Shown here one piece after another: positions 4,336-49,380 of a DNA stretch of 64,000 nucleotides (the first letter of the stretch is position 1; each line of letters starts with the position of its first letter). The notes beneath the pieces were generated by a model. That model saw only the letters and a program-made list of their open reading frames with translations. It ran no database searches and was not told the DNA's origin. A program made the position numbers and the translations under genes. Source of the stretch: Podarcis liolepis (Eukaryota); the NCBI GenBank assembly GCA_965112155.1, contig OZ218110.1, one strand, 5' to 3'.

Positions 4336-4763
4336 TGGTGTTTCCTGCTTGGCAGGGGGTTGGACTCGATGGCCCTTGTGGTCTCTTCCAACTCTATGAT
4401 TCTATGATTCTATACTCATGGGCTGAAGAACTAGAGAGATGTCTCTCAAGGCATCCAGGTCTCAAGGGGCTCATACAAAGTTGGTTCAGATGGAAATGTC
4501 TGAGGAAAATATGGGGAAATGATTACAGATGAAATCACCAATGGGACTTCAAGCACCATTTTATGTTAGTCATGGTTGATGGCATTTTCAGTTCTTTGCA
4601 CCATGACTCTTCCTTTGTGTGTTCCTTGTGACGTGCACAGAAATGTATCAGTCTGAATTATCTGAATACTTTTATTCAAATTCTTGATTCTGAATCAATT
4701 CAGAGGCAGCTGCTGGCAAAGGAGGGTTTTTGCCTGGGTTCAGATTCACTTCCTCTCACTGTG

Positions 4764-5208
4764 TATCTCTGCTCCACAGTAATACACAGCCGTGTCCTCA
4801 GGTTTAAGGCTGCTCATTTGCAGATAGAGGAGGCTGTTGGAATTATCCCTGGAGATGGTGAATCATCCCTTTACTTTATCCAAGTAGCAAATGTCAGATG
4901 AACCTGCATTTATACTTGCAACCCATTCCAGGACCTTTCCCTGAGCCTGTCTTCCCCAGTGCATCCATTTGCTGCTGAAGGTGAACCCAGAGACTTGACA
5001 GGAGAGGCGGAGGGACTCCCCAGGCCTTTTCACATCGCCTCCAGACTCAACCAGCTGGACCTCTGACTGGACACCTAGAAAGAAAGGCATTTTAAAAGAC
5101 CTGCTCTATGTTTTTAACACCCATGATGTACTAGCTGTCTTCAACAGAAAGGATGGATTTACCTCCAAAGGCTGCTGAAAAGAAAACAAGTTGAAGCAAA
5201 GCTATCAT
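4764..5208 (-). pseudogene. IGHV: IGHV pseudogene VH1 (family 1, clan III-like)
   Basis: Leader 5163-5208 ([15 protein letters not shown]), V exon 4764-5074 with in-frame TGA at 4863-4865 (CGA>TGA) and WGRQ. RSS CACAGTG 4757-4763, 23 bp, GCAAAAACC 4725-4733. Octamer variant ATGTAAAT 5290-5297. Confidence 0.93.
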
Positions 5209-13842: not shown

Positions 13843-14442
13843 TTACAATGTTTGTGTGTTTCGATAGGCAGCTCTCTGCATAAATAAAAGCCCTTGTTAC
13901 ACATGCATATCTGAATTGTTATATATGTTTGCTTTGCTGGAAGACCCTAAGGAGAAGCAGAGACTTGTGTGGAGAGATGGTGTCCCGACTCCATCCTTTC
14001 TCCCAATGAAGATATTTCCACACGCAGAGGCCATGTAAAATGCTTTACGGCAACTAAATAAAGTATATGCACTACATAAAGAAAACATCATATGGCCTCA
14101 CCATAGGCAAGTGCACACACGTGAGCCTTAAAAAGACCCTAACTTCCAAAAATGCATGAACAGAGAGCATCATGTGTGTTATATAATTCATGTAAAAGAG
14201 GGATAGAAGCAGGAATTAAACCACAAGATGCTGCTTGAACCCATGTTAAATCCTGACCGTCTTTGGGTCACATAGACTTAAATAAGAAATATATTTAGGA
14301 GGGCTGACACACTAAAGGGGACAAACAAAAAATCTTTTGAACTACATGTTTCTTCAGTCTCTTGCAGCCGAACCATCTCAGAAAGCATCTGTGTGCAAAG
14401 GAGAGTTTTTGCTTGGCTTCAGATTTACTTCCTCTCACTGTG

Positions 14443-14883
14443 TCTCTTGCACAGTAATACACAGCTGTGTCCTCAGGTTTCAGATTGTTCATTTGCAGAT
14501 AGAGGAGGCTGTTGGAATTGTCCCTGGAGGCAGTGAATCTTCCCTTTACTTTATCCGAGTAGTAAATGTAATTCGATTGAGGATATATGTAGGCCACCCA
14601 TTCCAGGCCTTTTCCAGGAGCCTGTCTCACCCAGTGCATGTGAGCAACCCAAAAGTTGAACCCGGAGGCTTGGCAGGAGAGGCGGAGGGACTCCCCAGGC
14701 CATTTCACATCTCCCCCAGACTCAACCAGCTGGACCTCCGATTGGACACCTAGAAAGAAAGGCATATTGAGAGACCAGATCCATGTCATTAACACCCAGA
14801 ATGTACCAGCTTTCTTCAACTGGAAGAATGAATTTACCTCCCCAACCTGCTGAAAAGAAAACAAGTTGAAGGAAAACTATCAT
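14443..14883 (-). CDS. IGHV: IGHV segment VH4 (family 1), open; CDR1 [11 protein letters not shown]2 IYPQSNYI
   Basis: Leader 14838-14883, V exon 14443-14749. RSS heptamer 14436-14442, nonamer GCAAAAACT 14404-14412. ATGTAAAT 14987-14994. Confidence 0.95.
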
Positions 14884-27434: not shown

Positions 27435-28020
27435 GTGTAGATGAACCAGACAGTAGAGTCACACTTTAAAATATGAAGTATTTCTCTCCTCTCAAAAATC
27501 ACTATATAGGTTGAACTAGGCACACATCATACTGCACATGTCCTGCTTCCACATTATGTATTGCATAATCACTATCTATGACAGTTTTATTTTAATGCGT
27601 CCAATCTATAGGACACCTAGATTAGGAGAGAAGTCAATTGTGTCATGGATTCCTCCTCCATGAATTTTTACTAATGGGCTGAAGAACTAGAGAGATGTCT
27701 CTCATGGCTTCAGGGTCTCAAGGGGCTCATACAAAGTTGGTTCACATGGAAATGTCTGAGGAAAATATGAGGAAATGATTACAGATGAAATCACCAGTGA
27801 TACTTCAAGCACCATTTTATGTTAGTTGTGGTTGATGATATTGTTAGTTCTTTGCACCATGGCTCTCCCTTTGTGTGTTCCTTGTGACGCGCAGAGAAAT
27901 GTATCAGTCTGAATTATCTAAATACTTTTATTCAATTTCTTGATTCTGAATCAATTCAGAGGGCAGCTGCAGGCAAAGGAAGGCTTTTGCCTGGGTTCAG
28001 ATTCACTTCCTCTCACTGTG

Positions 28021-29318
28021 TATGTCTGCTACACAGTAATACACAGCCATGTCCTCAGGTTTAAGGCTGTTCATTTGAATCATAGAATCATAGAGTTGGA
28101 AGAGACCACAAGGGCCATCAAGTCCAACCCCCTGCCAAGCAGGAAACACCATCAGAGCACTCCTGACATATGGTTGTTAAGCCTCTGCTTAAAGACCTCC
28201 AAAGAAGGAGACTCCACCACACTCCTCGGCAGCAAATTCCAATGTCGAACAGCTCTTACTGTCAGGAAGTTCTTCCTAATGTTTAGGTGGAATCTTCTTT
28301 CTTGTAGTTTGGATCCATTGTTCCGTGTCCGCTTCTCTGGAGCAGCAGAAAACAACCTTTCTCCCTCCTCTATGTGACATCCTTTTATATATTTGAACAT
28401 GGCTATCATATCACCCCTTAACCTCCTCTTCTCCAGGCTAAACATGCCCAGCTCCCTTAGCCGTTCCTCATAAGGCATCGTTTCCAGGCCTTTGACCATT
28501 TTGGTTGCCCTCCTCTGGACACGTTCCAGTTTGTCAGTGTCCTTCTTGAATTGTGGTGCCCAGAACTGGACACAGTACTCCAGGTGAGGTCTGACCAGAG
28601 CAGAATACAGTGACACTATTACTTCCCTTGATCTAGATGCTATACTCCTATTGATGAGGCCCAGAATTGCATTGGCTTTTTTAGCTGCCGCGTCACACTG
28701 GTGGCTCATGTCAAGTTTGTGGTCAACCAAGACTCCTAGATCCTTTTCACATATACTGCTCTCAAGCCAGGTGTCACCCATCTTGTATTTGTGCCTCTCA
28801 TTTTTTTTGCCCAAGTGCAATACTTTACATTTCTCCCTGTTAACATTCATATTGTTTGTTTTTGCCCAGTTCTCTAATCTGTCAAGGTCGTTTTGAAGTG
28901 TGATCCTGTCCTCTGGGGTGCTAGCCACCTCTCCCAGTTTGCAGATAGAGGAGGCTGTTGGAATTATCCCTGGAGATGGTGAATCGTCCCTTCACTTTAT
29001 CCAAGTAGCGAATGTCAGGTGAACCTGCATTTATATTCCAGGCCATTTCCCTGAGCCTGTCTTCCACAGTGCATCCATTTGCTGCTGAAGGTGAACCCAG
29101 AGGCTCGACAGGAGAGTCAGAGGGACTCCCCAGGCCTTTTCAAATCCCCTCCAGACTCCACCAGCTGGACCTCTGACTGGATAGCTAGAAAGAAAGGCAT
29201 TTTAAGAGACCTGGTGTATGTCTTTAACACCCATAATGTACTAGCTTTCTTCAGCAGAAAGGATGGATTTACCTCCAAAGGCTGCTGAAAAGAAAACAAG
29301 CTGAAGCAAAGCTATCAT
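28021..29318 (-). pseudogene. IGHV: IGHV pseudogene VH9 (paralogue of VH1), disrupted by a CR1 insertion in FR3 and an 11-bp FR2/CDR2 deletion
   Basis: Leader 29273-29318; V pieces 28942-29184 and 28021-28077. Conserved Trp codon is TGT. Heptamer 28014-28020, nonamer GCAAAAGCC 27982-27990. Confidence 0.94.
28078..28941 (-). mobile_element. 5'-truncated CR1 (ORF2 C-terminus and 3' UTR), near-identical to the element at 1-4413
   Basis: ORF 28152-28928 matches the ORF2 C-terminus. Tail AATCATAGAATCATAG at 28078. TTTG at both junctions. Confidence 0.96.
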
Positions 29319-31035
29319 TTTCCCTGTGTGAAATGTTGTCCCAGGCATGCAGGCAAAGGGAGGGTGTCTGACTGCCTTTGAGAGGAAGCTTCCTCTGAAG
29401 ATTTACATACCCATTAGGATAAAAGGACTAGCAGAAACATTTGGCAATGTAGAACTGGAGGCGTGTCTGCTCTTTGCAAAAATATTCTTCTTTACTACAA
29501 TACAATGCACACAGCTCTTTACAGTGGTGGATTTATGTATCCATATCAGGTTAGAAAAGCAACACAGGCTTCTTTTTTTGAACATGTCCAGTGCCCTTAT
29601 TAGGGATGGTGGTGAACGGCTCATTAACTTAAATGGAATGATATGATCAAATGAGGTTTCAGAAAGTTTAGATTGGGAATTAAATAAACATGTAGACAAG
29701 GGCACAGGAAAGAGGGAATTTTTTTTGTCAAATGTCATCTCTTAAAGGTTTTAAACAAAAAGGTAGAAGATACAGTTTATCCTGCCTTAAGACCAAATAA
29801 TTCTGCACCAGGCAAGGCATGCTCACAGTTCCTTATTTTTACCTTTCTCAAAACAACAAAAGTCATTTATAATGTGCCCTTTGCAATGTGTGAATGAGGA
29901 AATATGAAAAATGTGTTTGCATCCTGGGTTGCTAACATGCTGCCCATGGGTGCCCATGCATCTGCAGAAAGCTTCCCTGGTTCTCTCTCTCTCCCCCCCC
30001 CCCCCAGATTAGCCTTTAAATAAGCACAGTCTGTATAACAGGTTGTGGTGTGTGGTGGGTTGCTTGTGGTGTTTGTGCATAGTGCCCATAACAGATTTTT
30101 CTGATATCCATATGTGCCCATGGGTTGTTGGTGGCTCCTGGCCTACATGAACCAGACACTTGAGTCACAAAAAAATAAAATAAAAAAATAAAATAAAAAA
30201 TGAACAGGGGAATCTTTTGCTGATCAAACAATCGCTATTGGTATCTCCAAAAGTAGAACTAGGAACAAATGTGTGTTGTTCTAAAGGTCTGCCTATTTCA
30301 ACCTGCTTACCTAATGAAGAACTTATGCACCCAAAGTTAATGNNNNNNNNNNNNNNNNNNNNNNNNNNNNNNNNNNNNNNNNNNNNNNNNNNNNNNNNNN
30401 NNNNNNNNNNNNNNNNNNNNNNNNNNNNNNNNNNNNNNNNNNNNNNNNNNNNNNNNNNNNNNNNNNNNNNNNNNCATGCGATCTCAACACAGGCATGTGT
30501 GCACATGTAGAAAGTGATCTCAACCCAATATGTTAAATTAAACATAAAAAGGCCTTAACTTCCAAAGAAATGTAGATAGTGAGCATCACGTGTTACATTG
30601 CCCATGAAAAACAATGATAGAAACAAGAATATAACCATATATAGGAAGGTGTTGAAGACAAGATTTCTATATTTTTAAGATTTCTATATTTTTAAGAGTT
30701 ATGCTCTTCCCTCTCAAACACTGTCAAGCAATGGATATCTCACCCTTTCCCTGGTCCAGTGTCTACCTGAGCGCTGCAAGGAAGAACAATGTTAAGTATT
30801 GTGAAAATAGCTGGAGCCTGTGAGTGCTGCTTGAACCTCTGCAAAACCATAACCTGGAATGTGTTTTGAGGTCTCATTGTAAAATAGGATGGTGAATGTT
30901 GATGTGCAAAAGGGGACATGAAAATATTCCTTTAAACTATAAGTTGCAATGCTTGTTCCTCAAGATTGTAATTGAGAGCACCCATGTGAAAAGGAGGGTT
31001 TTTGTCTGGCTTCAGATTCACTTCCTCTCACTGTG

Positions 31036-31476
31036 TCTCTTGCACAGTAATACACAGCCGTGTCTTCCAATTTAAGGCTGTTCATTTGCAGATAGAGGAG
31101 GCTGTTGGAATTGTCCCTGGAGATGGTGAATCGTCCCTTGACTTTATCCAAGTAGTAAATGTAATCAGATTGGGGATATATGTAGGCTACCCATTCCAGG
31201 CCCTTTCCAGGAGCCTGCCTCACCCACGCCATGTAGTAGCTGCTGAAGGTGAACCCAGAGGCTTGGCAGGAGAGGTGGAGGGACTCCCTAGGCCTTTTCA
31301 CATCTCCCCCAGACTCAACCAGCTGGACCTCCGACTGGACACCTAGAAAGAAAGGCATATTGAGAGACCAGATCCATGTTATGAACACCTAGAATGTACC
31401 AGCTTTCTTTAACTGGAAGAATGAATTTACCTTCAAAAACTGCTGAAAAGAAAACCAGTTGAAGGAAAACTATCAT
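31036..31476 (-). CDS. IGHV: IGHV segment VH10 (paralogue of VH2), open
   Basis: Leader 31431-31476, V exon 31036-31342. Consensus RSS (31029-31035, 30997-31005). ATGTAAAT 31580-31587. One amino-acid difference from VH2 (KSED>KLED). Confidence 0.96.
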
Positions 31477-33757
31477 TTTCCTGGTCTGATTCTTTGAGAG
31501 AGTTAAGCAAGAAGCGGTCCCACATGTGCATGGGAAGGGAGGTTCTCTGACTGCTTTAAAGAGGAAGCTCTCTCTGAAGATTTACATACCCATCGGTATA
31601 AAAGTACCAACAGAGACTCTGGGCAGTGAGGGACTGGAGTCATGTCTGCACATTGTCAGAAATCTCCTTCTTTGCTGCTGCACAGTTTATACAGGTCTTT
31701 ACAGTGATGCTTTGATGTATAACTCTCAGGGGGGGAAAGCAACACAAGTGTTCAGAAATTCCATCACTTTCAGCATGCCCAGTATATGTACCGTTGAAGG
31801 TGGGGACCAATTTCTTACCATAAATATGGAGCGGAATTGGGCTGGAAGGATATGGTCAAATGAAGTAGAAGAAAATTTAGATTAAATATGAAGTAACACT
31901 GTAAATCACAGCTCAGCAAAGAAATGAAATGTCTGTGGAATGCTCTCTCTTAAAGGCTTTAAATAAAAATATATATGAATAGCATATGTATAAGAATCCC
32001 GTCTTAATGTTGAATAGTAGAGCACATGACATAACATTCTCACAGCTCCTTGTTCTTGCTCTCCTCAAAGCACAGGGAATCCTGTATTTGTAATATATAA
32101 ATGAGAAATATAAAAGCTGTGTTTACATGGGGGGGGGGTCACTAACATGGAACTCGTGAGCGCGTATATATGCAGGTTCAGTAACATTCACTATTTGTTT
32201 GTCAAGGCATCCTCCCTATTCTTTGGTCCTCCACAATACCAAGAATAAGATACACAACAACCAATACTTGGGTGAAATCAGGCCACAACTTTATTGACAA
32301 CAAAAGTTTGGCATAGATATTGGGTATACCCCTTCCCTTTCTGGCAAAAGAACTTGTGTTTTGGGGATAACAAGAAATGAGGGAGTCAATAAAGGGGTAT
32401 CTCCTCCACTGGATTGCACCTGGGGAGTGCTGTGGATCCTCACCCCTGCCTGGGCATCCCAACTGATGTATCTCCCCACGATCCCTTTAACGGGATATTC
32501 CATTTCAAAGGCAGAGGCTACAACCTCCCCTCAGAACACGACTTTGCCTATCCAATGCCTAAACTGTCAAAGTTGTGACATTTGCAATGAGGATGGCAAA
32601 AGGCAGAGGGCTGAGTTGGAAAATTTCACCTAAAACGGTGATCATCTATGCTATTGCAAGGTGGAGCAGAACAACATACAATAGCAATATGTAATGTGGG
32701 TGGGTGGGAATCCAATGAAAAGTGGCTGCAGAACAAGCCATGGGCCTGTGTTATATACTGGAGGAACGAGCTTTAACTTGGTTGCCCATGTTTGCTCCCG
32801 ATTCACTGATTAGGCAAGTGGACAAGGCAAATTACTGAAGCAACAAGTTTGGCCAAGAGCCTTCCTTTGATGCCTGGGAATCCCAAGTCAGATCCTGGCA
32901 TGCAAGGGAATGCCAGCCAACAATGATGCCCACCCAAGAGGGGGAATTCATTTCTGATAGTATCCTCTCTTCCCAATGGAAATTTGGTTTCAAAGAATCT
33001 CTTTAGTGTAGCCAATAGAACAAGTTGTGGTGTGTAGCTGGTTGTGGTGTTTGTGTGTGTAGTGCCCAGTATAGAATGTTTGATGGCCCTTGGAGTAAAT
33101 GAAAAAGAGAACTGAATCACAATTTAAAAATAAATATTTGTAGATCTGATCTGGAACCTGAAATCATAATTTGAGGCCATTTTTTCATGTTCCTCCTCCA
33201 CAAGAGGTCTGAAGGGTGGCAAAATGAGAAGGATCCATTTCTGAAATGTATTCCTGTTTGTGGAATGCTCTCCCCAGTGAGGATTGCCTGGAACCATCAT
33301 TATAAATCTGTAGGCACCAGGCAAAACCTTTCCTCTATAACCAGGCCTTTGGCCTTTAACTATTTGTGGTCTCTTAAAAGTGGGTGAGTTGTTTTTAATG
33401 TATTCTTCTTTCCTTTTTGTTTTAACATATCTATAAAGGGTGTTTTGTTTCTTTGGTTGTAAGTCTCATTGGATTGCCCTGGGCGAGATTAAGGAACTGA
33501 TAAATTCATAATAATAACACTAATAAATGATTATAGTTTGCCTGGGGAGAGCCGTAGGTATACAGCTGCATGGCTAGCTGGCTGTCTCCGTTTGAATGGG
33601 CAGACTATCGGTCTAAATTATTTTAACAGGTTTCTTTGGTCTCTGGCAGCTAATAGAATGTCCCTATCTTCATTTGGAATGTTGGAGGGAATGCAACTCC
33701 TCTGTTTGATTGAAGGAGGGTTATTGTCTGGCTTCAGATTCACTTCCTCTCACTGTG

Positions 33758-34198
33758 TCTCTTGCACAGTAATACACAGCCGTGTCTTCCGATTTAAGGC
33801 GGTTCATTTGCAGATAGAGGAGGCTGTTGGAATTGTCCCTGGAGATGGTGAATCTTCCCTTCACTTTATCCAAGTAGTGAATTGTACCCGAAGTGGAGCT
33901 TATGTAGGCCACCCATTCCAGGCCCTTCCCAGGAGCCTGTCTCACCCAGTGCATGCCATAGTCCCCAAAGTTGAATCCTGAGGCTTCACAGGAGAGGTGG
34001 AGGGATTCCCCAGGCCTTTTCACATCTCCTCCAGACTCCACCAGCTGGACCTCTGATTGAACACCTAGAAAGAAGGGCATTTTTAGAATTCTGCTGCATG
34101 TTATTAACTCCCAGAGTACCCCAACCATCTTTAACTGAAAGGATGTATTTACCTCCCAAAGCTACTGAAAGGAAAACTAGTTGAAGCAAAACTATCAT
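33758..34198 (-). CDS. IGHV: IGHV segment VH11 (paralogue of VH3), open
   Basis: Leader 34153-34198, V exon 33758-34064. Heptamer 33751-33757, nonamer ACAATAACC 33719-33727. ATGCAAAT 34302-34309. Confidence 0.96.
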
Positions 34199-36013
34199 TT
34201 TACTTGTCTAAACCTGTGAGAGTGTTGAGCAAAATTTGGTCCCAAATATGCAGAGGAAGGGAGGCTGTGTGACTGCTTTAAAGGAGAAGCTTTCGCTGAA
34301 AATTTGCATACCCATCAAGATAAAAGCACCAACAGAGACTTTGGGCAATGAACGACTAAAGGCATATCTGGACTTTGCAAAAATCTGTCTCTTCGACACT
34401 TTTTGACATTTGCAGAGCTCTTTACATCTGTGGATATGTGTACCTCACAGGATGCACAAGCAACATGGAAACTCTGGGCTCATCAACACTTCCCTTTGTC
34501 CTGTGGGTCCAGGATGTTCTTTTGTTTAGTTGCTTTCCCCTGGTTCTACTGAACCATAACAAATGTCAATCCACAGAAAACCTGGTTGATTTTTGTTCCT
34601 ATTCAGTGTCAAACCACGGCTTTTCCTGGAGAAAGTGATGGGAGAAAAGAAAACACAGGAATAAGAGTAGTGTGGGCAAGCCCACTTTCACTCAGAGCAT
34701 GCCAAGCACTTTATGGAAGACAGTGCATGATTCCTGAACATGCTTTAAGGAGAATCAGGCTGCAATAATGTGAAGAAATGAAGTTGGAGAGAGATGATGA
34801 TCATGATGATGATGATTTTATTATACTTATATATCACTCTTCATCATTAAATCCCAGGATGGTTCACAAACTAAAATACAATGTAAAAGCATAAATAAAT
34901 AGTTAAAACGTTAAGAACGTCAGCAGTCATGACTTGTCACAGCAGCTGTGAGGGAGTCTTTGGCCTGACTGTGGTGGTGGCTGAGGAAGTGGGACATTTA
35001 AACAGAAGCCAGGATGGCTTTTGTAGATCTGGGACGTTCTGCTCAAAGTAGGACAGTTGGAAGCTCTGCTGTACTACAAATATTTTGTTTACACATGCCC
35101 TCAATCTATAGGCCATTCATATTTGTAGAAAAGAAGATTGTGCCATGGATTCCTTCCCCAGAAACTGTTGCCTATGGGCTAAGGGCACAGAGATAATTGC
35201 TTGATAGTTTCTCAGGGACTCAAATTCTCAGGGGGCTCATAGAAGGTTGGTTGAGCAGGAAACATCTGAGAAAGTATTTGCTTCACAGATGAAATCACCA
35301 ACCGTAATTCGAGCAGCATTTTATTTCAGTCCTGGCAGATGGGGCGTTTTCTCATCTTTGCACCATGACTGCCCCCTTGTGAGAAACAAGAGATGGAAGA
35401 GGTCTGCATTTGTGACTAGATGCTTAATGTGCCAAATGACATTTGGTAGAGGATTAATGGCTTTTCCTTCCAGTGAAGCCAAATTCTCCTTTAGACCATT
35501 TGATCATCCTGATTTTTTTATTTTCATTCATTCGCAATTGCCTTACAATTTTTTTTTTTTTTTGTTTATCAATACTCAAAGAGTTTTAAAAACAAATCAG
35601 CAATGATCATATCTTGGTCACAATAATGCAATGCCATTAAACCTTGTTTTACCAAACTTTGCACCAGTGATGGAGCTTCATGCTCTGGAACCAGGGGGTG
35701 GAGAGCAGGCGGGAGAGGGGCTGGGGGCATCCCAGGGGAAGAGTGGACAGGGGCGTGGCACATGTCCTGGGGTGGGGCGTGCCACCTGCCGGGGGTGCCA
35801 GCCGCAGTGGTACCCCACCAGGATTGCGCTGCCAGGGGTGGTGCGCTCCTCCCCACACCTCTTCCTCCTCCAGTGCTTCTCACTGTAACCTCTGTCTACT
35901 AAACATGCTCTATACCTTTCAGTCTCACCAGATGCATTTCTTTTGATTGTATAAATCCACTTGCAGAAGGAGAGAGACTCTATCTATATCTATCTATCAT
36001 CTATCTATCTATC

Positions 36014-36056
<43 letters not shown>

Positions 36057-36117
36057 ATCTATCATCTATCTCTATCATCATCTATCTATATACCTATCTA
36101 TCATCTATCTAATATAT

Positions 36118-36485
36118 AGGGTTGGCGCCATCGCCGAATGGCGGACTCCCTCCGAGCTCCAGAGGGAGTCTGCTCGGCAGGGGTTGGGTCCCATCGTGCC
36201 GGCGACGCGGGGACCCTCAAAAACCATGGGCGCGGATGCCCATGGACCTGGTGACTCGGCCCGCACCGTTAGCGCCCCCCCGACCTGCGAAGGAGCCTTT
36301 TTAAATTTGGGGTAAGAACTTGTGGAACTAATCTAATGGAAGTGGAATACAAGAGGGAGAGGGGTGAGGAAGTCCTGGAAAGATGTTGATGAAAGCAAGA
36401 TTTAAAATGAAAATGCTTTTTTCTTTTCTTTTCTTTTTTGTGTTTTGGATTTTTTGGAAATTTTAATAAATATGATTAAAAAAAA
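36118..36485 (+). mobile_element. Internally deleted copy of the 11983-13842 element
   Basis: 5' and 3' ends joined at TTTTAAA (~36299-36305). Confidence 0.7.
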
Positions 36486-37080
36486 TACAATGTTTGTGTG
36501 TTTTGATAGGCAGCTCTCTGCATAAATAAAAGCCCTTGTTACACATGCATATCTGAATTGTTATATATGTTTGCTTTGCAGGAAGACCCTAAGGAGAAGC
36601 AGAGACTTGTGTGTGAAGGTGTCCCGACTCCATCCTTTCTCCCAATGAAGAAATTTCCACACCCAGAGGCCATGTAAAATGCTTTACGGCAACTAAATAA
36701 AGTATATGCACTACATAAAGAAAACATCATATGGCCTCACCATAGGCAAGTGCACACACGTGAGCCTTAAAAAGACCCTAACTTCCAAAAATGCATGAAC
36801 AGAGAGCATCATGTGTGTTATATAATTCATGTAAAAGAGGGACAGAAGCAGGAATTAAACCACAAGATGCTGCTTGAACCCATGTTAAATCCTGACCGTC
36901 TTTGGGTCACATAGACTTAAATAAGAAATATATTTAGGAGGGCTGACACACTAAAGGGGACAAACAAAAAATCTTTTGAACTACATGTTTCTTCAGTCTT
37001 TTGCAGCTGAACCATCTCAGAAAGCATCTGTGGGCAAAGGGGGGTTTTGTTTGGCTTCAGATTCACTTCCTCTCTCTGTG

Positions 37081-37530
37081 TCGCTTCTTTCTCTTGCACA
37101 GTAATAAACAGCCGTGTCTTCAGGTTTCAGATTGTTCATTTGCAGATAGAGGAGGCTGTTAGAATTGTCCCTGGAAGCGGTGAATCTTCCCTTCACTTTA
37201 TCCGAGTAGTAAATGTAATTAGATTGAGGATATATGTAGGCCACCCATTCCAGGCCTTTCCCAGGAGCCTGTCTCACCCAGTGCATGACATAGCCCCCAA
37301 AGTTGAATCCAGAGGCTCGGCAGGAGAGGCGGAGGGACTCCCCAGGCCTTTTTGCATCTCCCCCAGACTCAACCAGCTGGACCTCCGATTGGACACCTAG
37401 AAAGAAAGGCATGTTGAGAGACCAGATCCATGTTATTAACACCCAGTATGTACCAGCTTTCTTCAACTGGAAGAATGAATTTACCTTTCAAAGCTGCTGA
37501 AAAGAAAACAAGTTGAAGGAAAACTATCAT
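37081..37530 (-). CDS. IGHV: IGHV segment VH12 (positional paralogue of VH4), open, with a 9-nt 3' extension and variant RSS
   Basis: Leader 37485-37530, V exon 37081-37396 ending CARERS. Heptamer CACAGAG 37074-37080, nonamer ACAAAACCC 37042-37050. ATGTAAAT 37634-37641. Confidence 0.9.
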
Positions 37531-37718
37531 TTTCCTTCTCTGATTCTTTGAGAGAGTTTAGCAAGAAGTGGTCCCACGTATGCATGGGAAGGGAGGTTCG
37601 CTGACTGCTTTAAAGTGGAAGCTCTGTCTGAAGATTTACATACCCATCAGTATAAAAGCACCAACAGAGACTCTGGGCAGTGAGGGACTAGAGTCATGTC
37701 TGCACTTCGTCAGAAATC

Positions 37719-39329
37719 TTTTGCTGGGTTTGATGGGGAAGGAGATTAAGAAATCAGACCAAAGACTATTCATGTACACCACAGCAGCGGCAAGGAATAT
37801 GCTGGCCCAATATTGGAAATTACAAGAAATTCCTACCATTGCGGAGTGGCAGACGAAAATCATGAATTATGCCAAGTTAGCCAAGCTGAATGGCAGGATT
37901 CGGGATCAGGATGTTCAGAGATTCCAGGATAGTTGGAGTAAAATTGTTGTGCACTTAAAGGATAACTGTAAAAATTTAAAGACACTGGCAGGACTGAAGG
38001 AACTCCTACAATGTATTGAGGCATCTAATCATAGCCTGCATTTTTATCAAGGCTTATAGTTTGATTAGGGTCTGTATTTTAAAATGAGCTTAAAGATTTT
38101 CAAATGTTTTATGCCAGGCAGAAGACCAGCTGCCTAAGTACTTTGGCAAGATGTTTATCCTCCTGGACAAGGGGGCCCCCTGATTTATAGCAGAAAACAA
38201 TTCTCAAAGTCGTAAAAAGGGAATTACAGGCTGAGACCAAGGTTACACTGACCCTACAGAATTAATAGTTGGTAAATAGTAAAATAAAACCATGTGCCTT
38301 AAACTTGAGCCATATCTTCCTAAGGTTAAAGGCCAAGAGTAAATGGAAAAGAAAGCAACTGGCTGAGAAGGGAAGTGTAAATAGAAGAAGAGGCTTTTAT
38401 TTTGAGGCTGTAAACTGTTCCTTCCTTTCCTTTGAGAAGGTTTATTCTTCTAAAAAGCTATCTATGATAATGTATGAAATATACTGGCTTAAATGTAATT
38501 ATGCAAAGGATCTAGAAAGAAATAAATGTTAAATTCTTATTTCATAGAGTCATATTGCTGTAGGAGACCAGAGGGGCAGATGAGCCCAGCCCCCTGCCAG
38601 ACAGGAGACGCCATCAAGCACTCCTGATATATGGTTGTCAGGCCATTGTTTAAAGACCTCCAAAAAGGAGATCTTTCATTGATGATGCATGAGAATGTGA
38701 ACCCAAGATCCCTGACATCTGTCTAAGATAAAAATTTAAAACTATTAACCATCTGTTTTGGAGGGCAATAGGGCAAGGAGGGCAAGAGGTGAGCTGGTAA
38801 TTAAGGTTCCTTGTTGAGACAAATGTAAGATATATGACTACTTATTTGTCATTTATAGATAGAAGAATATATAGCCTTTTGTATCCCATAAAAGGCAATA
38901 GGAAATGGGTGTATCTTTTAGGATTGGTTATAGCAATCAGCCAATAGGAAATTCAACCAGGCTGATTGGACAGAGGCAGCCAAAGGAGGAGCAACGGGGC
39001 TGGACTGAGGGAATATAAGTGCTGGCCATAATGACAGGAGACCAGGCCAGAGCTTGGTAACCATATACCACTGTGCCTCTCATTTATTTGTCTGACAAAT
39101 AAATTATTATTTTAATTTCTCTATTGCTGCGTTGAATATTTCATTCCAGCTAAGCGTTAACCACAAGCAGGGTGCTACAGTATAAGATAGATATAAGGTC
39201 AACAAACTATAATACGTGACTGGAGAGAACAAGGGATACCTGCTTGGCAAGCTTGGCAAAGCTAAAAATGTATATGTGGGCTAAAGAAATGTAAAATGAA
39301 TTTGAAAAGAAAATAATAAAACATTATTG
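37719..39329 (+). mobile_element. L1 3' fragment (paralogue of 15072-15530), split by a solo LTR
   Basis: Same sequence as 15072-15530, interrupted at 38017-39179. Confidence 0.75.
38017..39179 (+). mobile_element. Solo LTR (1163 bp; ERV1- or Gypsy-type by its 4-bp TSD)
   Basis: TG...CA ends (TGAGGCA/TGCTACA). TSD GTAT at 38013-38016 and 39180-39183. CCAAT boxes ~38940-38968, TATAA ~39014, AATAAA ~39098. Empty site at ~15365. Confidence 0.9.
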
Positions 39330-40434
39330 ATGAAGAAATGAAATGTCCATGGAATGCGCTCTATTAAAGGCTTTAAATAAAAATATACAGGAATAGCATA
39401 TGTATAAGAATCCTGTCTTAATGTAGAATAGTAGAGCTCATGACATAACATTCTCATAGCTCCTTGTTCTTGTTCTTCTCACAGCATGGGGAATCCTGTC
39501 TCTGTAAGATGTGAATGAGAAATACAAAAGCTTTGTTTACATTGGGCGGAGTGTTATATGGGTGCATATGCATATTCAGAAACATTCCCTGTTTGCATGT
39601 CAAGGCATCCTCCCTACACTTTGGTCCTCGCCTATACCAAAATTAAGATACACAACAACGAATACTTGGGTGAAATCAGGCGACAACTTTATTGACAACA
39701 AAAGTTTGGCATAGGTATTTTGTATACCACCCCTTCCTGCAAAAAGAACTTGTGTTTTGGGGAAAACAAGAAATGAGGGCGTCCCTGACCTACATCAAGG
39801 GGTATCTCCCCCACTGGATTGCACCTGGGGAATGTTGTGGCCCCTCACCCCTGCCTGGGCATCCGGACAGAAGCATCTCCCCATGATCCCTTTAACAGGA
39901 TACTCCGTTTCGAAGGCAGGGGCCACAACTGCCCCTCAAAGCAAGACTATACCTATCCAATGCCCAAACTGTCAAAGTTGTGACAATTACAATGAGCAGG
40001 GCAAAAATCAGAGGGCTAAGTGAGAAAATTTCAACCTGGCCCCAAATTCGGTGGAGCAGAGCAACATGCAATAGTAATATGCAAAGTGGGTGGGTGGAGA
40101 TCTAATGAAAAGTGGCTGCAGAACAAGCCACAGGTCTGTATTATATACTGGAGGAACGAGCTTTAACTTGGTTGCCCATGTTTGCTCCCGATTCACTGAT
40201 TAGGCAAGTGGACAGGGCAAATTACTCAAGCAACAAGTTTGGCCAGAGCCTTCCTCTACTGCCTGGGAATCCCAAGTCAGATCCTGGCACACAGGGGAAT
40301 GCCAGCCCACAATAGCGCCTACCCAAGAGGGCGAACACACTTCTGACGATATCCTCTCTCCCCAATGGAAATTTGGTTTCAAATAAGCTCTTTAGTGTAG
40401 CCAATAGAACAAGTTGTGGTGTGTAGCTGGTTGT

Positions 40435-40476
<42 letters not shown>

Positions 40477-41191
40477 TACTGCCCATTATAGAATGTTTGG
40501 TGGCCCTTAGTGTAAATGAAAAAGAGAACTGAGTCACATTTTAAAAATAAATATTTGTAGATCTGATCCGGAACCTGAGATCATAATTTGAGGCCGTTTT
40601 TTTCATGTTCCTCCTTCATGATGTCTGGAGGGTGGCAAAATGAGAAGGAGCCATTTCTGAAATGGATCCCTGTTTGTGGAATGCTCTCCCCTGTGAGGCT
40701 CTCCTGGAACCATCATTACACATCTGTAGGCACCAGGCAAAACATTTCCTCTATAACCAGGCCTTTGGCCTTTAACTATTTTTGGTCTCTTAGAAATGGA
40801 TGAGGTGTTTTTAATGGATTTCTCTTTACTCTTGGTTATATTGTATCTATGTGGGGTTTGTTGTCTCTTGGATTGTAAGTCTCATTGGATTGCCATGGGT
40901 AAGAAAAAGCAACTGAGAAATTCATAATAATAGCACTAATAAATCATTATAGTTTCCCTAGCAAAATTCCCAGGTATACAGCTGCATGACTAGCTAGCTG
41001 TCTGTGTGTGAATGGGGACCTGGAAAAAGAAGGTGGCAGACTATGGGACAAAATTATCTTAACAGGTTTCTTTGATCACTGGCAGCTGATATAATATCCC
41101 TATTTTCATGTGGAATCTTGCAGAGAATGCAACTCTGTTTTGATTAAAGGAGAGTTTTTGTCTGGCTTCAGATTCACTTCCTCTCACTGTG

Positions 41192-41632
41192 TATCTTGCA
41201 CAGTAATACACAGCAGTGTCCTCGGGTTTAAGGCTGTTCATTTGCAGATAGAGGAGGCCGTTGGAATTGTCCCTGGAGAGGGTGAATCTTCCCTTCACTT
41301 TATCCATGTAGTACATTGCACCTGAATTGTGGCTTATGTAGGCCACCCATTCCAGGCCCTTCCCTGGAACCTGCCTCACCCAGTTCATGCCATAGCCCCC
41401 AAAGTTAAACCCAGAGGCTCGACAGGAGAGGCGGAGGAACTCCCCGGGCCTTTTCACATCTCCTCCAGACTCCACCAGCTGGACCTCTGATTGGACACCT
41501 AGAAAGAAAGGCATTTTAAGAAGTCTGCTGCATGTTAACAACACCCAGAATGTACCAACCTTTGATAACTGGTATGAGAAATTTACCTCCTAAAGCTACT
41601 GAAAAGAAAACAAGCTGAAGCAAAGCTATCAT
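41192..41632 (-). CDS. IGHV: IGHV segment VH13 (paralogue of VH5), open
   Basis: Leader 41587-41632, V exon 41192-41498. Heptamer 41185-41191, nonamer ACAAAAACT 41153-41161. ATGTAAAT 41736-41743. Confidence 0.96.
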
Positions 41633-43978
41633 TTTTGCCTGCCTGATGCTTTGAGAGATTTGACCAAAATGTGGCCCCTAGTATGCAGGGATAGGGAGAG
41701 TGTTTGACTGCTTTAAAGAGGAAGCTCTCTCTGAAATTTACATAACCAGGAGGATAAAAGTACCAACAAAGACATCTGACAATGTCTGACTGGAAGCAAA
41801 TGGTGACCTGGCAAAAATATACTGCACAATTTGCATAGCTCTTAACCTTGATGGGCTTATGTATCCCCCTCATGCAGTGGTGTAGCGTGGGGGGTGCAGG
41901 GGGGGCCGGCCGCACCGGACGCAACATCTGGGGGTTAGGGTTAGGGGGCGCAAATCCACGGGTTAGGGGGGCGCAAATCCATGGGCTAGGGGGCGCAACT
42001 CTGGTGAGACTTGGCAAATTAATATGAATATAAAGCCACTCCCGACATAAGGGGGGGGGTTGCGGGCTCACGCCCACCATCATCTGGGGAATCCTCAGGC
42101 CGCGTCATCCCCTGGGCCAGCAAATCGGCAGGCTGCAGGGGTGGGGCTAGGGTCACTTAAGGACGGCGCGGCCCGAGATCGCCCCTTTTCCTTCCCTGTT
42201 CCAGCTGCGGTTTCCCACCCACCCACCCTCTAGGTCTTCCCTCGGACTTTGCTATGGAACTCGGTTGGTCGCCGCAAAGGGCCTGGTAGGAGTTTTTCCA
42301 CTCGGCAAATTGGCATTGATTTAAAGCCATTTGGTTTTTTCGCCTACCGCGTAGCAAAACATCACAACACATTCAGTTTTGGCGGTTAGGCATTGGTAGG
42401 GGTATTATTATGCAGATGAGTAGGGGGGGGAGGAGCGCCATCACCTTCTCCAAATATTCAAGGGTAGTCTGATAAAGGATTCTGGGGGGGCGTTGCCTCG
42501 TCTGAAACCTATGGAGGCTAGGGCCCAAAGCACGCTCCCGAGCGATGACCCCTCGGGGAGCGCCTAGGGATGTGCATCTCAGGGGCTCCCCCTGTTGGTG
42601 TTAACCCTTTCTGGTTCTATGCCGGATAGTCTGATAGGACCAACGCCTAAAGCCAATACCGCTCTTACCTGTAACCAATAAAGTTGTGGCCATTTTTCGC
42701 CCATTAACCTAAAATTCTACTGTCCTGTGTCTTTATTTACTCTAACTGGGGGGGGGGGGGATGTGTGACTTGGCAAATACAAATACCTACATGAATCAGG
42801 AAATTTACTTGCATCAGTCAAGCGTTATCAAGCGTTGGCAAGCAGTCCTTTTTTATTCTTGACAGAAACAAGCAAAACAGAGGCATCAGTAGAGGAGATC
42901 TGACTATTGTCTGACTGGACCGCACCTCCTTCCATTGGCATTTTCTGTTCTTGACAGCATCACTTCCCTCTTGTGGGGAACAGGAAGAGGTGGGATATAA
43001 TTCCAGGAGTCTTGGTTTCTGACAAGATGCTTAATTTGCAAAATGGCATTTGACATAGATTTGCGGGTATACTGTCTAGTGACATGGGGAAGAGCAAAGC
43101 AGCACCAAACATGTAGTTGCACCAAATACACATTTCAAGTATTAGATCTTGATTTTTAAAATTATTATTCTTTCAGTTAATTCTTCTCTTAACATACCAC
43201 AGAATACACCATTGCTGAACAGAACTGCCAAACCATAGGTTTTCCATATCTGATTATTTTCCTCACCACAATGGAGAGGTAGGTGTTGGGGAATAAGTGT
43301 TATATATGCACATAAACACAATTCCCATGGAATTTATAATATTTATTTCCAGCATTTTATTCTAGCTTTTCCCTCGAATTCAAGGTGCTATACATTATAT
43401 CGCCCTCCTCATATATTTCCCATTATACCCCAGTAAGGTAGGTCAGACTGAGAGGCTGAGACTGACCCAAGGTCATCTAGTGAGCTTCATGCACAAGTAG
43501 GTATTTGAACCCGGGTTTCCCATGTCCTATGTGCTGCAGAGGTTTCAGCCCATGCCAAGAGGTGATGGGATGATGAAGAAATACACAATGGCCAATTCAC
43601 AATATTGTAAAAAGTCTACATTTCTTCTTGAGGTCTATCGCAAGCAGCCTTAAGCATAACTCAGAGGTAAGAGCAGACAAAACACAAATAATCATCTATT
43701 TTCAAAACTGGATATTGAATTTAGGTGGTAGGAAAAAAATGCTGCAGCAAAGTCATTTGGTACAGTGTTGTACTGATCCACATTGGTCGACCTCCACTGT
43801 GTGTCACTTTTGCGTTTCTGCATTATATTACAGATTGAAGAGGCAGGCAGTTTGGATGTTGTTCCGCATCATCTGTGGAATGTAGAATTGCTCTGTCACA
43901 GTTTTCACAGTGTATTTTTTTTATAGAAGCAGGACTTCTACTTTTTGAACAGGGCCCAATAGGCTTTGTCTCACTGTG

Positions 43979-44426
43979 TCTCTTCGGGCACAGAAATACA
44001 CAGCAGAGTCTGCAGCTGTCAGGGAGTACAGCTGGAGAGAGAATTCATTCTTTGAGGCATCTGAAGAAATGCTTGCTCGGCTCTTCAGAGAAGGGGCATA
44101 TGCTGTGTTTCCATTATAGGGGTATATCTCTGCAATCCATTCCAGACCTTTCCCAGGAGCTTGACGGATCCAATCCCATACATAATACTGAGTAGAGATG
44201 GAGAAACCTGTGACTTTACAAAGTAGGTTGAGATTCTCTCCTGGTCTCGCTATTCCTGGTCCAGATGATACAAGCTGAATGTCTGAGGAGACCCCTTGGA
44301 AAGACAAAAGAGGGCAATGAATGATTGGACATCATCCAATCACCACATGAAGTAAATTAATACTGTAAAACTTCCCGTACCTTTAGAAAAAGCCACCAAA
44401 GAAAACAAGAGCAACAAGAACTCCAT
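43979..44426 (-). CDS. IGHV: IGHV segment VH14 (family 2), open; CDR1 [13 protein letters not shown]2 IYPYNGNT
   Basis: Leader 44381-44426, V exon 43979-44294. Heptamer 43972-43978, nonamer TCAAAAAGT 43940-43948. ATGTAAAT 44545-44552. Confidence 0.95.
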
Positions 44427-44828
44427 AATGTTGATGAATGAATGTGCTAGAGATACAGGAAAGAGGGGACTCTGGGCTGGGAAGCAAGTGAAGATTTTTT
44501 ATTCAGGGCTTTTCATCCGAAACCACTCCCAACTTCCTGGTGGTATTTACATGAGACCTCCCCAGTGAGGCACATGAGGCAAATAAAAGCCATTTGGGAG
44601 ATCAGGGTTTGCTGCTGCTTTCCTCTTTGTCCCATGCACACACACACACACAGACAAATGCACACAGAGTGGAGTTCTAATGCAGGGGGCATAAACGGAA
44701 TGTAAAATTCAATCGAAGACATTTGTGTTGGAGGAAGGTTTCGAAGAAATAAATATACTGGGGATGATTTTTTCTTTCTTTTATGCTTTAAAACTGTTCG
44801 TTGTGGTGGATCAGTCAATAGACTGGCT

Positions 44829-44860
<32 letters not shown>

Positions 44861-45606
44861 ATCCTCCCTTCCACATGCACCTATAGAGATGCCTCTGGTG
44901 TGACACAACTATAATTTCAAATGCAGCTTGTGAAAAAGTTGGGCTGGGATGGAGCTCTGCTGTGGCAACCTGGAGAAGATGAATTTTAAGTAAATAAAAG
45001 AAAATGTAAGATATGTGTTCCATCTTTATATTCACACCCCAGGGCACCCTTCATAGACAATGGAAAGAGACAAAGTTGAGCCAATTCCTTCCACCCCTCT
45101 CCCTTTTGTTTGGTGAGGGGTTGACTGACAAGAAGTCGTAAGCACACAAAGGTTGTGGTTCAGGATATAGCAGGAGTGTGGAGGTTGTCTGGGTGAATTA
45201 AGAAGGAGTCGTCCTCACCAGCATTTGCCTTTGGGCAGGGGTGGGGAAACTCATCGAAATGTTTTGGTACTCCAACGCCTTTCATCCTAGGGGTAGCCAT
45301 TTTGAAGTTCGAGAGATGGTAATGATTTTATTATAGTTATATATCACTTTTCATCATAAAACCTCAGGATGGTTCACAAGATTAAAATACAACTTAAAAT
45401 GAAAAATGTTCTTCCTCTTCTCAAAGCACGGGGAATCCTGTCTTTGTAATAGGCAAATGAGAAATATAAAAGCTGTGTTTACATGGGGGTGTCACTAAAC
45501 ATGGTGCTCATGACTGCATATATATGCATGTTCAGAAACATTTCCTATTTACATGTCAAGGCATCCTCTTTGGTCCTCTTTGAGCAGTAAGAAGACCCTA
45601 ACTTAA

Positions 45607-45661
<55 letters not shown>

Positions 45662-45664
45662 TAA
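45607..45664. repeat. (AAT)n microsatellite; the paralogous site ~24980-25042 carries (AAC/ATC)n
   Basis: Direct reading. Confidence 0.93.
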
Positions 45665-45909
45665 TGAACAGTGAGCATCCTGTGTGTTATATAATTCATG
45701 TAAAAGAGGGATAGAAGCAAGAATCAAACCACAAGATGCTGCTTGATGCCATGTAAAATCCTGACCTTAAATATGTCTTTGGTCTCAGAGACTTAAATAA
45801 CAAACAGGTGAGAGATTGCTGGCATGCTAAAGGGCACAAATATCTCAGAGAGCGTCTGTGGGCAAAGGAGGGTTTTTGCTTGGCTGCAGATTCACTTCCT
45901 CTCACTGTG

Positions 45910-46351
45910 TCTCTTGCACAGTAATACACAGCCGTGTCCTCTGGTTTCAGGTTGTTCATTTGTAGATAGAGGAGGCTGTTGGAATTGTCCCTGGAGATAG
46001 TGAACCGTCCCTTGACTTTATCCGAGTAGCGTTTGGCAGATGAATCTGTATTTATATCTCCCACCCAATCCAGGCCCTTTCCAGGAGCCTGCCTCACCCA
46101 CGCCATGTAGTAGCTGCTGAAGGTGAACCCAGAGGCTTGACAGGAGAGGTGGAGGGACTCCCCAGGTCTCTTGACATCCCCTCCAGACTCAACCAGCAGG
46201 ACTGCAGATTGGGCACCTAGAAAGAAAGGCATTTTAGCATAACTGCTGCATCTTATTACACTCAGAGTGTCCCGTGCTTCTGGATTTGAGAACGGATGAA
46301 TTTACCTCCAAGAGCTGCAGAAAATAAAACAAGTTGTAGCAAAAGTATCAT
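45910..46351 (-). CDS. IGHV: IGHV segment VH15 (paralogue of VH8), open; CDR1 [11 protein letters not shown]2 INTDSSAK
   Basis: Leader 46306-46351, V exon 45910-46216. Heptamer 45903-45909, nonamer GCAAAAACC 45871-45879. ATGCAAAT 46462-46469. Confidence 0.96.
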
Positions 46352-47249
46352 CTTCCTTATCTAATGCTAGAGAGCTGAATGAAAAGTGGCCTCAGGTATT
46401 CAGGGTCACTGGTGCTGGGAGGAGGTCTGACCATCCTAAATAGGTGTCTCTCTCTCTGAAAATTTGCATACCCAGCTGGAGAAAAGCAGCAACAGAGACT
46501 TCAGGTAGTCTCTGACTGTAGGCATATCTAGTCTTTGTAAAAGTCTGCTTCCTCGTTAACGTAAAACTTCCGTACTTCTTAACAAGGGTGGAAATACATA
46601 TCTTTCTAAGGATAAAATGAATACACAAACATTTGAGGGGGGAACGAGTTCCCTTGAACATGCCATGTACTCCCGGTGAACAATTTCTTGACATTGTTGC
46701 AGGGAGGAATTGTGCCGGAATGGCACGTTCAAGTGTAGCAGCAGAAGGAAAAGCTTAGATTAACCATTAAGCAAAAATATTCTTTGTAATTTTTTTTATA
46801 GGTATCCTGACTTGAAGTAAAGAATCAGAGCAAAAGACAAGGCCCTCTCATGGTCTCTTGTTTCTGGCCTGCCCATGGTTACCTGTTTACACACAGAGCC
46901 ATTCCCTGTGAAGCACAGCTCGCAGCCCCACTTCAGCTGAAATTAGGCTTCAGTAAATAAACACTTTAGCCAACAGAATAGTTGGCTGTGGTGTATGCAG
47001 TTGGTGCTCTTTCAGCAATGGTTTTCACCATGGGGTCTATCGATATACAGCTTATATATGGGTACACTGTCTTATGGTAGAATATTGGAGAAAATGACAA
47101 GGCATTCTCATAGAATCTTGTTGCTGCCCTTCTCATGTTTGAAATAGGAAATAGGAAAGTTGTGTTTACATCAGAGGGTGGCAGTGTGGCAACCTTCCTT
47201 GCTTTCCATATATTCCACTTCCCCCGTTGAAATTAGGCGTGAAGGTAGC

Positions 47250-47359: not shown

Positions 47360-48777
47360 ACTTGATTGTAGCCAAGATAATAGTTTGTGGTGTGTGGTTG
47401 ACTATGGTGTTTCTGTGTGCTGCCCACGAGATATTTTTTTTCTGGGTGGCACATATGTCCATGGGTCCAGAATAGTTGATGACCCCTGGTCTACATGAAC
47501 CGGATGCTTCATTCACATAAATAGCAAACAGAAGTATTTTCATCCCCAAAGGTAAAACTGGGGGCAAACTGTATGCTTTTCAATCAGAACAATCTCCATC
47601 GGTCACACAAGAAAATGTCATATGCCATGCCCATGGGTCAGTCACTATTTATGTTTCTTTTGACGTCTTCAGGCTATAGGGCACCCAGAATCAGACACTA
47701 GCTGATTAGGCCATGAATTCCCCCTTCATGAATTGCTACCCATGGGCTGGCGACATAAGAGAAGATTGTGAGAAAGTCTCTCAGGGAGTCAAATCTCAAG
47801 GGGCTCCTAAAATGTGGCTTCACAATAAATGTCTGAGGAAATGATTAGCCTCGCAGATGAAACCACCAACTGTACTTAAAGCACCAATTTAATTTGGTCA
47901 TGGCCGATGGCATTTTCTGTTCTCGGCACCATGACTGCCCCCTTGGGGAGACGAGAAGGAGGAGGTTGTGGTGGTAGGGAATTCTGATGTCTTGTAGTGT
48001 GACAAGATGGTTAATATGTGATAGGATAGAGATTGATGAATTCTCCTTCAGTGATACCAGAAGATGTGTTCTAAGACTATAATAAGAGAGGGGACAGAAG
48101 CTAGAATTTTACTTTAACTAGGAGGTTTCAGAAATCAGACTCACCTTTGTTGGGGGTTTTAAAGCAGAAATTGTCAGGGATTCTTGCATTTAGCAAAATA
48201 AGTGTTAATTTACCAATCCCAAGTGTTATCTTACCAATCTTAAGCAATAGAGGGCATCTGTGTTTGTTTGGTGTCAAACTCATGCCTGACAATCCTGTTG
48301 CACACCATCCCAATCTCCGAGCAGCAAAATATTCAGGGGTCAGAGGTGGATTCAAGGGAACATGACAAGTTTGGTTGCACTAGACATGGAGTCTTGGGGT
48401 GCCATAACTATGATTTAGTATCAAGCATGAGAGGTGGGGGTTTCAGATTTTGGCATCGCACAGGGTGCTGCTGAAATTTGGGATCCCAAGGTTCAGCACT
48501 GCAGGGTATCCAGTCCTTGGTGTAGATGAACCAGACAGTGGAGTCACACTTTAAAATATGAAGTATTTTTCTCCGCTCAAATATTAGTATAGGCATATAA
48601 TTTGAACTAGGCACTATAGGCATATAAAGGTTGAACTACTAATATTTATTTTTTTAATGTGACTCCGTTCTCTTCTTCATTTACACCAAGAGCCACCAAA
48701 CATTCTGCAATACAACTCCTCTGTCTTGATTAAAGGAGAGTTTCTGTCTGGCTCCAGATTCACTTCCTCTCACTGTG

Positions 48778-49320: not shown

Positions 49321-49380
49321 AATTTACATTTACATTAAATTTACATTTAAATTTTCATTTTCATTTACATTTACATTTAC
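49321..49380 (-). promoter_or_regulatory. VH16 octamer site expanded into a (TTTACA)n array with five ATGTAAAT motifs
   Basis: ATTTACAT at 49322, 49328, 49339, 49363 and 49369; the first is at the normal distance from the ATG. Confidence 0.8.

Follow-up and report, generated by a model that had tools for sequence, protein, structure and literature searches.

Length changes near the 3' end of germline V genes have been described before. In cattle, the germline 3' extension of IGHV1-7 was formed by an 8-nt duplication, which is clean and single, shifts the frame and serves ultralong CDR3s (PMC5994613). In zebrafish, the germline indels of TRAV11-6 and TRAV52-1 (displaced RSS) are of 1-2 nt only and are harmful since joining is guided by microhomology, and in mouse Tra in-frame joining is near random, at 35.6% (PMC10322711). 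Near-random joining likely applies to a D-containing heavy chain as well.

Joints of the open-and-shut type are described as somatic (PMC2213516). The germline-joined Ig genes of sharks are coding joints in which the RSS is lost, with trimming and P bases and little sign of TdT (PMC2193156, PMC2193153), and the first of these reports cites, with a caveat, RAG-1 from the ovary of zebrafish and RAG-2 from oocytes of Xenopus. Among human indels, slippage accounts for about three quarters, while non-slippage insertions, partly due to template switching, make up about 2.5% (PMC3638132). Among the matches listed in our literature search, at most the best 20 each and mainly from openly available papers, none described a germline scar of the open-and-shut kind in the V genes of an amniote. 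Here we describe a lizard IGHV gene with a 9-nt insertion at the border of V coding end and heptamer, which is real, inherited and probably ordinary in origin.

A longer V end in an intact IGHV gene

The window, by which we mean the whole stretch of 64,000 nucleotides of Podarcis liolepis DNA analysed here, belongs to a cluster of squamate IgH V genes that lies on the minus strand, and 22 V-RSS matches were found in it versus about one expected. The gene under study has a clan III-like IGHV exon with an open frame (37081-37396, minus strand), whose spliced product ends in YYCARERS. Its leader exon of 46 nt, followed by a GT donor, lies at 37485-37530 (minus strand), and its octamer-like promoter motif at 37634-37641 (minus strand) is one mismatch from the octamer consensus, a form shared by the sister gene and by most of the family. 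In the promoter of another V gene, with heptamer start at 48777 (minus strand), seven octamer-like motifs stand in a row at about 49330-49380, mostly 6 nt apart. The gene is intact, with leader, GT/AG splice sites, open frame, conserved Cys and Trp and a 23-RSS all present. Its best protein identity among the matches listed was 85%, to a Podarcis lilfordi VH, with none higher, and a CARERS-like tail occurred in 0 of the 120 homologues listed, many of whose gene models stop or splice at the V end.

Along the minus strand, the end of the gene reads TGTGCAAGAGA AAGAAGCGA CACAGAG, a 23-nt spacer and ACAAAACCC. The insertion (37081-37089) thus stands between the ancestral V end and the variant heptamer CACAGAG (37074-37080), and is followed by a spacer of the family type (37051-37073) and a nonamer with one A missing from its A run (37042-37050). 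The ambiguity by a GA given in the preliminary description is borne out, as the insert slides 2 nt upstream and is equally placeable up to 37083-37091, which is 0 to -2 from the heptamer. By locus profile score, the RSS of the assembled haplotype is joint third-weakest of 78. The gene lies in one copy of a segmental duplication (28938-46751), and the other copy (4817-26136, 93-96% identical) holds a sister V gene with its RSS (14404-14749, minus strand), which serves as proxy for the earlier state. The two genes are 95% identical, the family-type 23-RSS and downstream DNA match, and the nine bases are absent from the sister. A segment of about 1.17 kb upstream of the gene (38016-39182) is missing at the sister position; it holds no frame of more than 87 codons, and only a 130-nt repeat in it has matches elsewhere in the locus.

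The insertion was present in four of the four DNA runs examined. Single contigs bridge it with at least 31 letters on each side in X1, X13 and X3, which span two organism labels, and coverage in X10 comes solely from overlapping contigs (16 V-side letters, or 5 RSS-side letters). From X1, which may be the assembly's own source, one could suspect a faulty assembly, or a somatic joint carried by a lymphocyte clone of the sample that was sequenced. X13, X3 and X10 are three other samples from two other studies, under two organism labels, and recurrence of the insert in them rules out such an artefact, whose probability we put at practically nil. The insertion is therefore confirmed as real and inherited. 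It lengthens the V end in the germ line by three codons, at the place where RAG cuts, as had been described from the sequence.

The preliminary description had also taken the variant heptamer and nonamer as companions of the insertion, which did not hold. The nonamer variant is the loss of one A from the A run, and the fifth A is kept in the insert-bearing contigs of X13, X3 and X10. Contig depths, and how far the sites lie from contig ends, suggest that the insert is joined to a canonical heptamer in one X13 contig and one X10 contig. The X13 contig has a substitution inside the insert, from Arg to Thr, and the X10 contig has the 48-nt downstream deletion typical of paralogues 25294 and 45909; the V end with the insert would thus be joined in X10 to the downstream type of a paralogous RSS (45871-45909, minus strand). 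It is likely that the longer V end has recombined onto this second RSS background. Since the insert occurs with an intact nonamer and apparently with a canonical heptamer, both RSS variants are best regarded as separate from the insertion event.

In the runs compared for use of the gene in rearranged transcripts, reads over it numbered 11 in X23 and 0 in X21. None of the 11 X23 reads spans the insert, and all are less than 95% alike and paralogue-like. Three X23 reads, perhaps from one clone and also less than 95% alike, run 3 nt into the insert and then into J.

Source of the nine bases

We consider it probable that the inherited 9-nt extension has an ordinary source, namely slippage during replication, or a template switch, on the purine-rich end of the V and its spacer. 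Eight of the nine inserted bases are purines, and compared with published human N1 base frequencies (bioRxiv 10.1101/248021) at least five A (p 0.024) and at least eight purines (p 0.026) would rarely be expected. Two tandem duplications of the gene's own end, AAG and AAGAGA, match the insert in 8 of 9 positions, one substitution off, with p 0.013 for uniform random 9-mers and 0.017 for two TdT-like compositions of our own choosing. Two slips and a transversion are required for this parse, which was picked after the sequence had been seen, and much of its fit is due to composition, because 103 of 504 shuffles of the insert fit the two-duplication model equally well.

Simpler templates were tried and rejected. 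The nearest single tandem duplication differs from the insert at 3 of 9 positions, and positions 3-11 of the gene's own spacer match at 7 of 9, which is not significant (p 0.08-0.17). The rarity of non-slippage insertions among human indels counts against local copying insofar as the template is imperfect. The composition and duplication tests depend on each other and were chosen after the sequence was seen; together they lean towards local copying, short of proof. Slippage in the purine run, which the preliminary description had named as the alternative to its own model, is then the better reading, given the A-rich and purine-rich insert and the two-duplication parse.

By that model, TdT had put nine N bases onto untrimmed ends in an open-and-shut joint of the germ line. 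The position at the cut and the retention of the gene's own RSS suit it, as does the lack of an exact local template, and such joints exist in lymphocytes (PMC2213516). Against this stand the A-rich and purine-rich composition, the separate origin of the RSS variants, and the absence of P nucleotides, since T or TC would be expected from an AGAGA end left untrimmed, and the insert begins with A. Missing P nucleotides are common and compatible with RAG action. A loss of 0-2 coding bases by trimming is indistinguishable from the placement ambiguity of the insert. The model moreover requires RAG and TdT together in the germ line, and its shark precedent shows little evidence of TdT activity in the germline joints (PMC2193156). 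A RAG/TdT scar is accordingly a very improbable source, and the separable RSS variants, the missing P nucleotides and the composition and two-duplication parse speak for local copying instead.

A longer end might otherwise have come by gene conversion from another V, either through shared origin with the 8-nt end of the V gene at C14:9248389 (CVRERK versus CARERS), a clade-mate, or from a donor that this haplotype no longer has. Gene conversion appears active at the locus: in the CDR1 region (37265-37340, minus strand) paralogues 48777, 33757, 9653 and C14:9248389 are closer to the gene than is the sister (43 of 45 versus 37 of 45 positions), and this region is likely a conversion tract, in the insert gene or in the sister. 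The insert on a second RSS background in X10 also agrees with such exchange. However, the sole exact genome match of a 17-mer over the insert is itself, and none of the 17 one-mismatch genome matches lies in the IgH locus, for which reason a paralogous donor was rejected. The ends of the gene and of C14:9248389 differ by three substitutions and a gap in about nine nucleotides. Capture of a D segment was likewise rejected, the longest match being 5 nt among the 19 D segments compared; no D or J is fused to the gene, and the RSS is retained. As conversion also merely shifts the question of origin elsewhere, we give it a slight chance. The preliminary description had held that a local duplication or a copy from another VH would speak against its scar; the second finds no exact donor in the genome, and the first fits imperfectly (8 of 9).

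Length changes at the V/heptamer border

In the window, 13 of the 22 V-RSS matches have an end of 11 nt from Cys codon to heptamer, and in nine of them it is exactly TGTGCAAGAGA. The others measure 14 nt (six, another family), 15 nt (two) and 20 nt, the last in the insert gene only. The 11-nt end is the common vertebrate state, judging by the read-through tails that many among the 120 homologues listed show. Intact V genes also have ends of +1, +2 and +8, so that the frame is unconserved among length variants. The preliminary description was right that the insertion keeps the frame, with the product YYCARERS, but this carries no weight as evidence when such ends occur in intact genes.

Several other long ends were observed. 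Two broken V genes of the window (4725-4778 and 27982-28035, minus strand) share a 15-nt end (+4), and the change lies about 5 nt inside the coding end. The clade-mate V gene C14:9248389 (C14:9248371-9248408, minus strand) has an 8-nt extension before its heptamer and a nonamer shifted by one base; the extension equals the first bases of its own spacer at 8 of 8 positions (p about 0.002). Five open-frame V genes of one long-branch lineage near the D cluster (C14:7847124, 7859391, 7878199, 7893784 and 7906499, minus strand) have a 19-nt end (CARDRA or CARHRA) and the heptamer CACTCTG. Their 8 extra nucleotides look by eye like a heptamer duplication that has decayed; together with the heptamer in use they make up a short inverted repeat. 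The V-end pattern had no match in C14 8.07-9.02 Mb. Three D-like segments with paired 12-RSSs (C14:7917478-7924256, minus strand) are situated upstream of some 40 D-proximal V genes and stand separate from the main D cluster (7.780-7.806 Mb).

Indels were then counted over 460 kb of the locus, in which 81 V-RSS matches, less three dropped as non-V and with 23 damaged-RSS ends added, gave 101 V ends. On a spanning tree of these ends (91-92 of its 100 edges with at least 80% identity, double counts removed), exon and spacer had 0.10 and 0.11 indels per 100 sites, intron and downstream DNA had 0.73-0.81, and the stretch from Cys to heptamer had 1.84. The 101 ends showed 15 distinct length changes in this zone, and 6 of its 10 insertions are exact tandem copies. 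Substitutions in the last two coding bases (10 and 6) were near the spacer values (0-8). By its indel rate, the zone is free of the constraint that acts on exon and spacer, as would be expected were the frame reset by joining. Border enrichment, a check named in the preliminary description and made here for this locus only, was found in part: the border rate is 2.4 times that of the flanks (nominal p 0.003; 15/815 versus 87/11283 sites), but an indel rate equal to or above it was seen in 2 of the 23 control windows of 9 nt.

Given the flank rates, the chance of one insertion of at least 6 nt is 0.43-0.67 in the Cys-heptamer zone and 0.16-0.29 within the three placements next to the heptamer. 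For two long insertions no more than 2 nt from the cut in the set of 101 V ends, of 9 nt in the insert gene and 8 nt in C14:9248389, it is 0.013-0.046. This last value and the raised border rate would fit a RAG cut at the V/heptamer border in germ cells or the early embryo, closed without TdT by templated, polymerase-theta-like end joining, which would also explain the other long extensions of the locus. The third 8-nt extension, that of the D-proximal lineage, agrees with this and was left out of the border indel test for its long branch; germline RAG activity with little sign of TdT is accepted for sharks (PMC2193156, PMC2193153). On the other side, besides the control windows, the bias towards insertion at the border is not significant (10:4 versus 32:28 in the flanks, p 0.25), several border insertions cannot be put at the cut, P nucleotides and clear trimming are lacking in the insert, and selection for a longer CDR3 or an AG-rich context could yield the same excess. 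We therefore hold this origin of the insertion to be unlikely. A broader proposal is that lizards still occasionally make germline RAG cuts at IGHV/RSS borders and join them by templated repair, with bases copied from the RSS or coding DNA close by. The three independent 8-9-nt extensions would be its scars, and an amniote would have a targeted supply of longer germline CDR3 that recurs; this seems to us improbable though not negligible.

Proposed path and comparison with described systems

Under local copying, the simplest path would be a tandem copy of AAG and a tandem copy of AAGAGA, followed by one later substitution. The extension was likely kept because the bases from Cys codon to heptamer are free to change length; selection may spare such an insertion, because the V(D)J joining step would reset the frame. 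Drift or mild selection could then have kept the longer V end, ectopic recombination may have moved it onto at least one other RSS background, and separate RSS changes would have followed, with a weakened RSS in the assembled haplotype. An untrimmed end is predicted to add up to three residues, Glu-Arg-Ser, at the start of CDR3.

Unless there is a neutral control, short indels next to an RSS should not be taken for RAG scars. The lasting lead beyond this single insert is a modest excess of long insertions at the cut site. Should that excess be real, it would be evidence that RAG acts in the germ line of an amniote, and would offer a genomic signature that can be counted for a question long open.

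Compared with the described systems, the insertion resembles open-and-shut joints in that the change lies at the coding/heptamer border with the same RSS rejoined (PMC2213516), yet it is inherited and shows no P bases or clear trimming, and its composition leans away from that of N regions. It shares with the germline-joined shark genes a heritable change at the RAG site (PMC2193156, PMC2193153), but the lizard gene is unjoined and its RSS is present. As in slippage and template-switch insertions, a short germline insertion seems copied from nearby DNA (PMC3638132), although the template here is imperfect and the assignment to this class correspondingly indirect. Like zebrafish TRAV11-6 and TRAV52-1, the gene has a germline indel between Cys and RSS in a V otherwise usable (PMC10322711). 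The closest of the described cases is cattle IGHV1-7, in which, too, a germline V is lengthened near its 3' end, with the RSS kept and extra residues at the start of CDR3 (PMC5994613), whereas the lizard insert is probably an imperfect compound copy and keeps the phase. As ordinary mutation, the present case makes a small addition, namely that lizard V genes repeatedly lengthen the germline start of CDR3, as cattle IGHV1-7 does.
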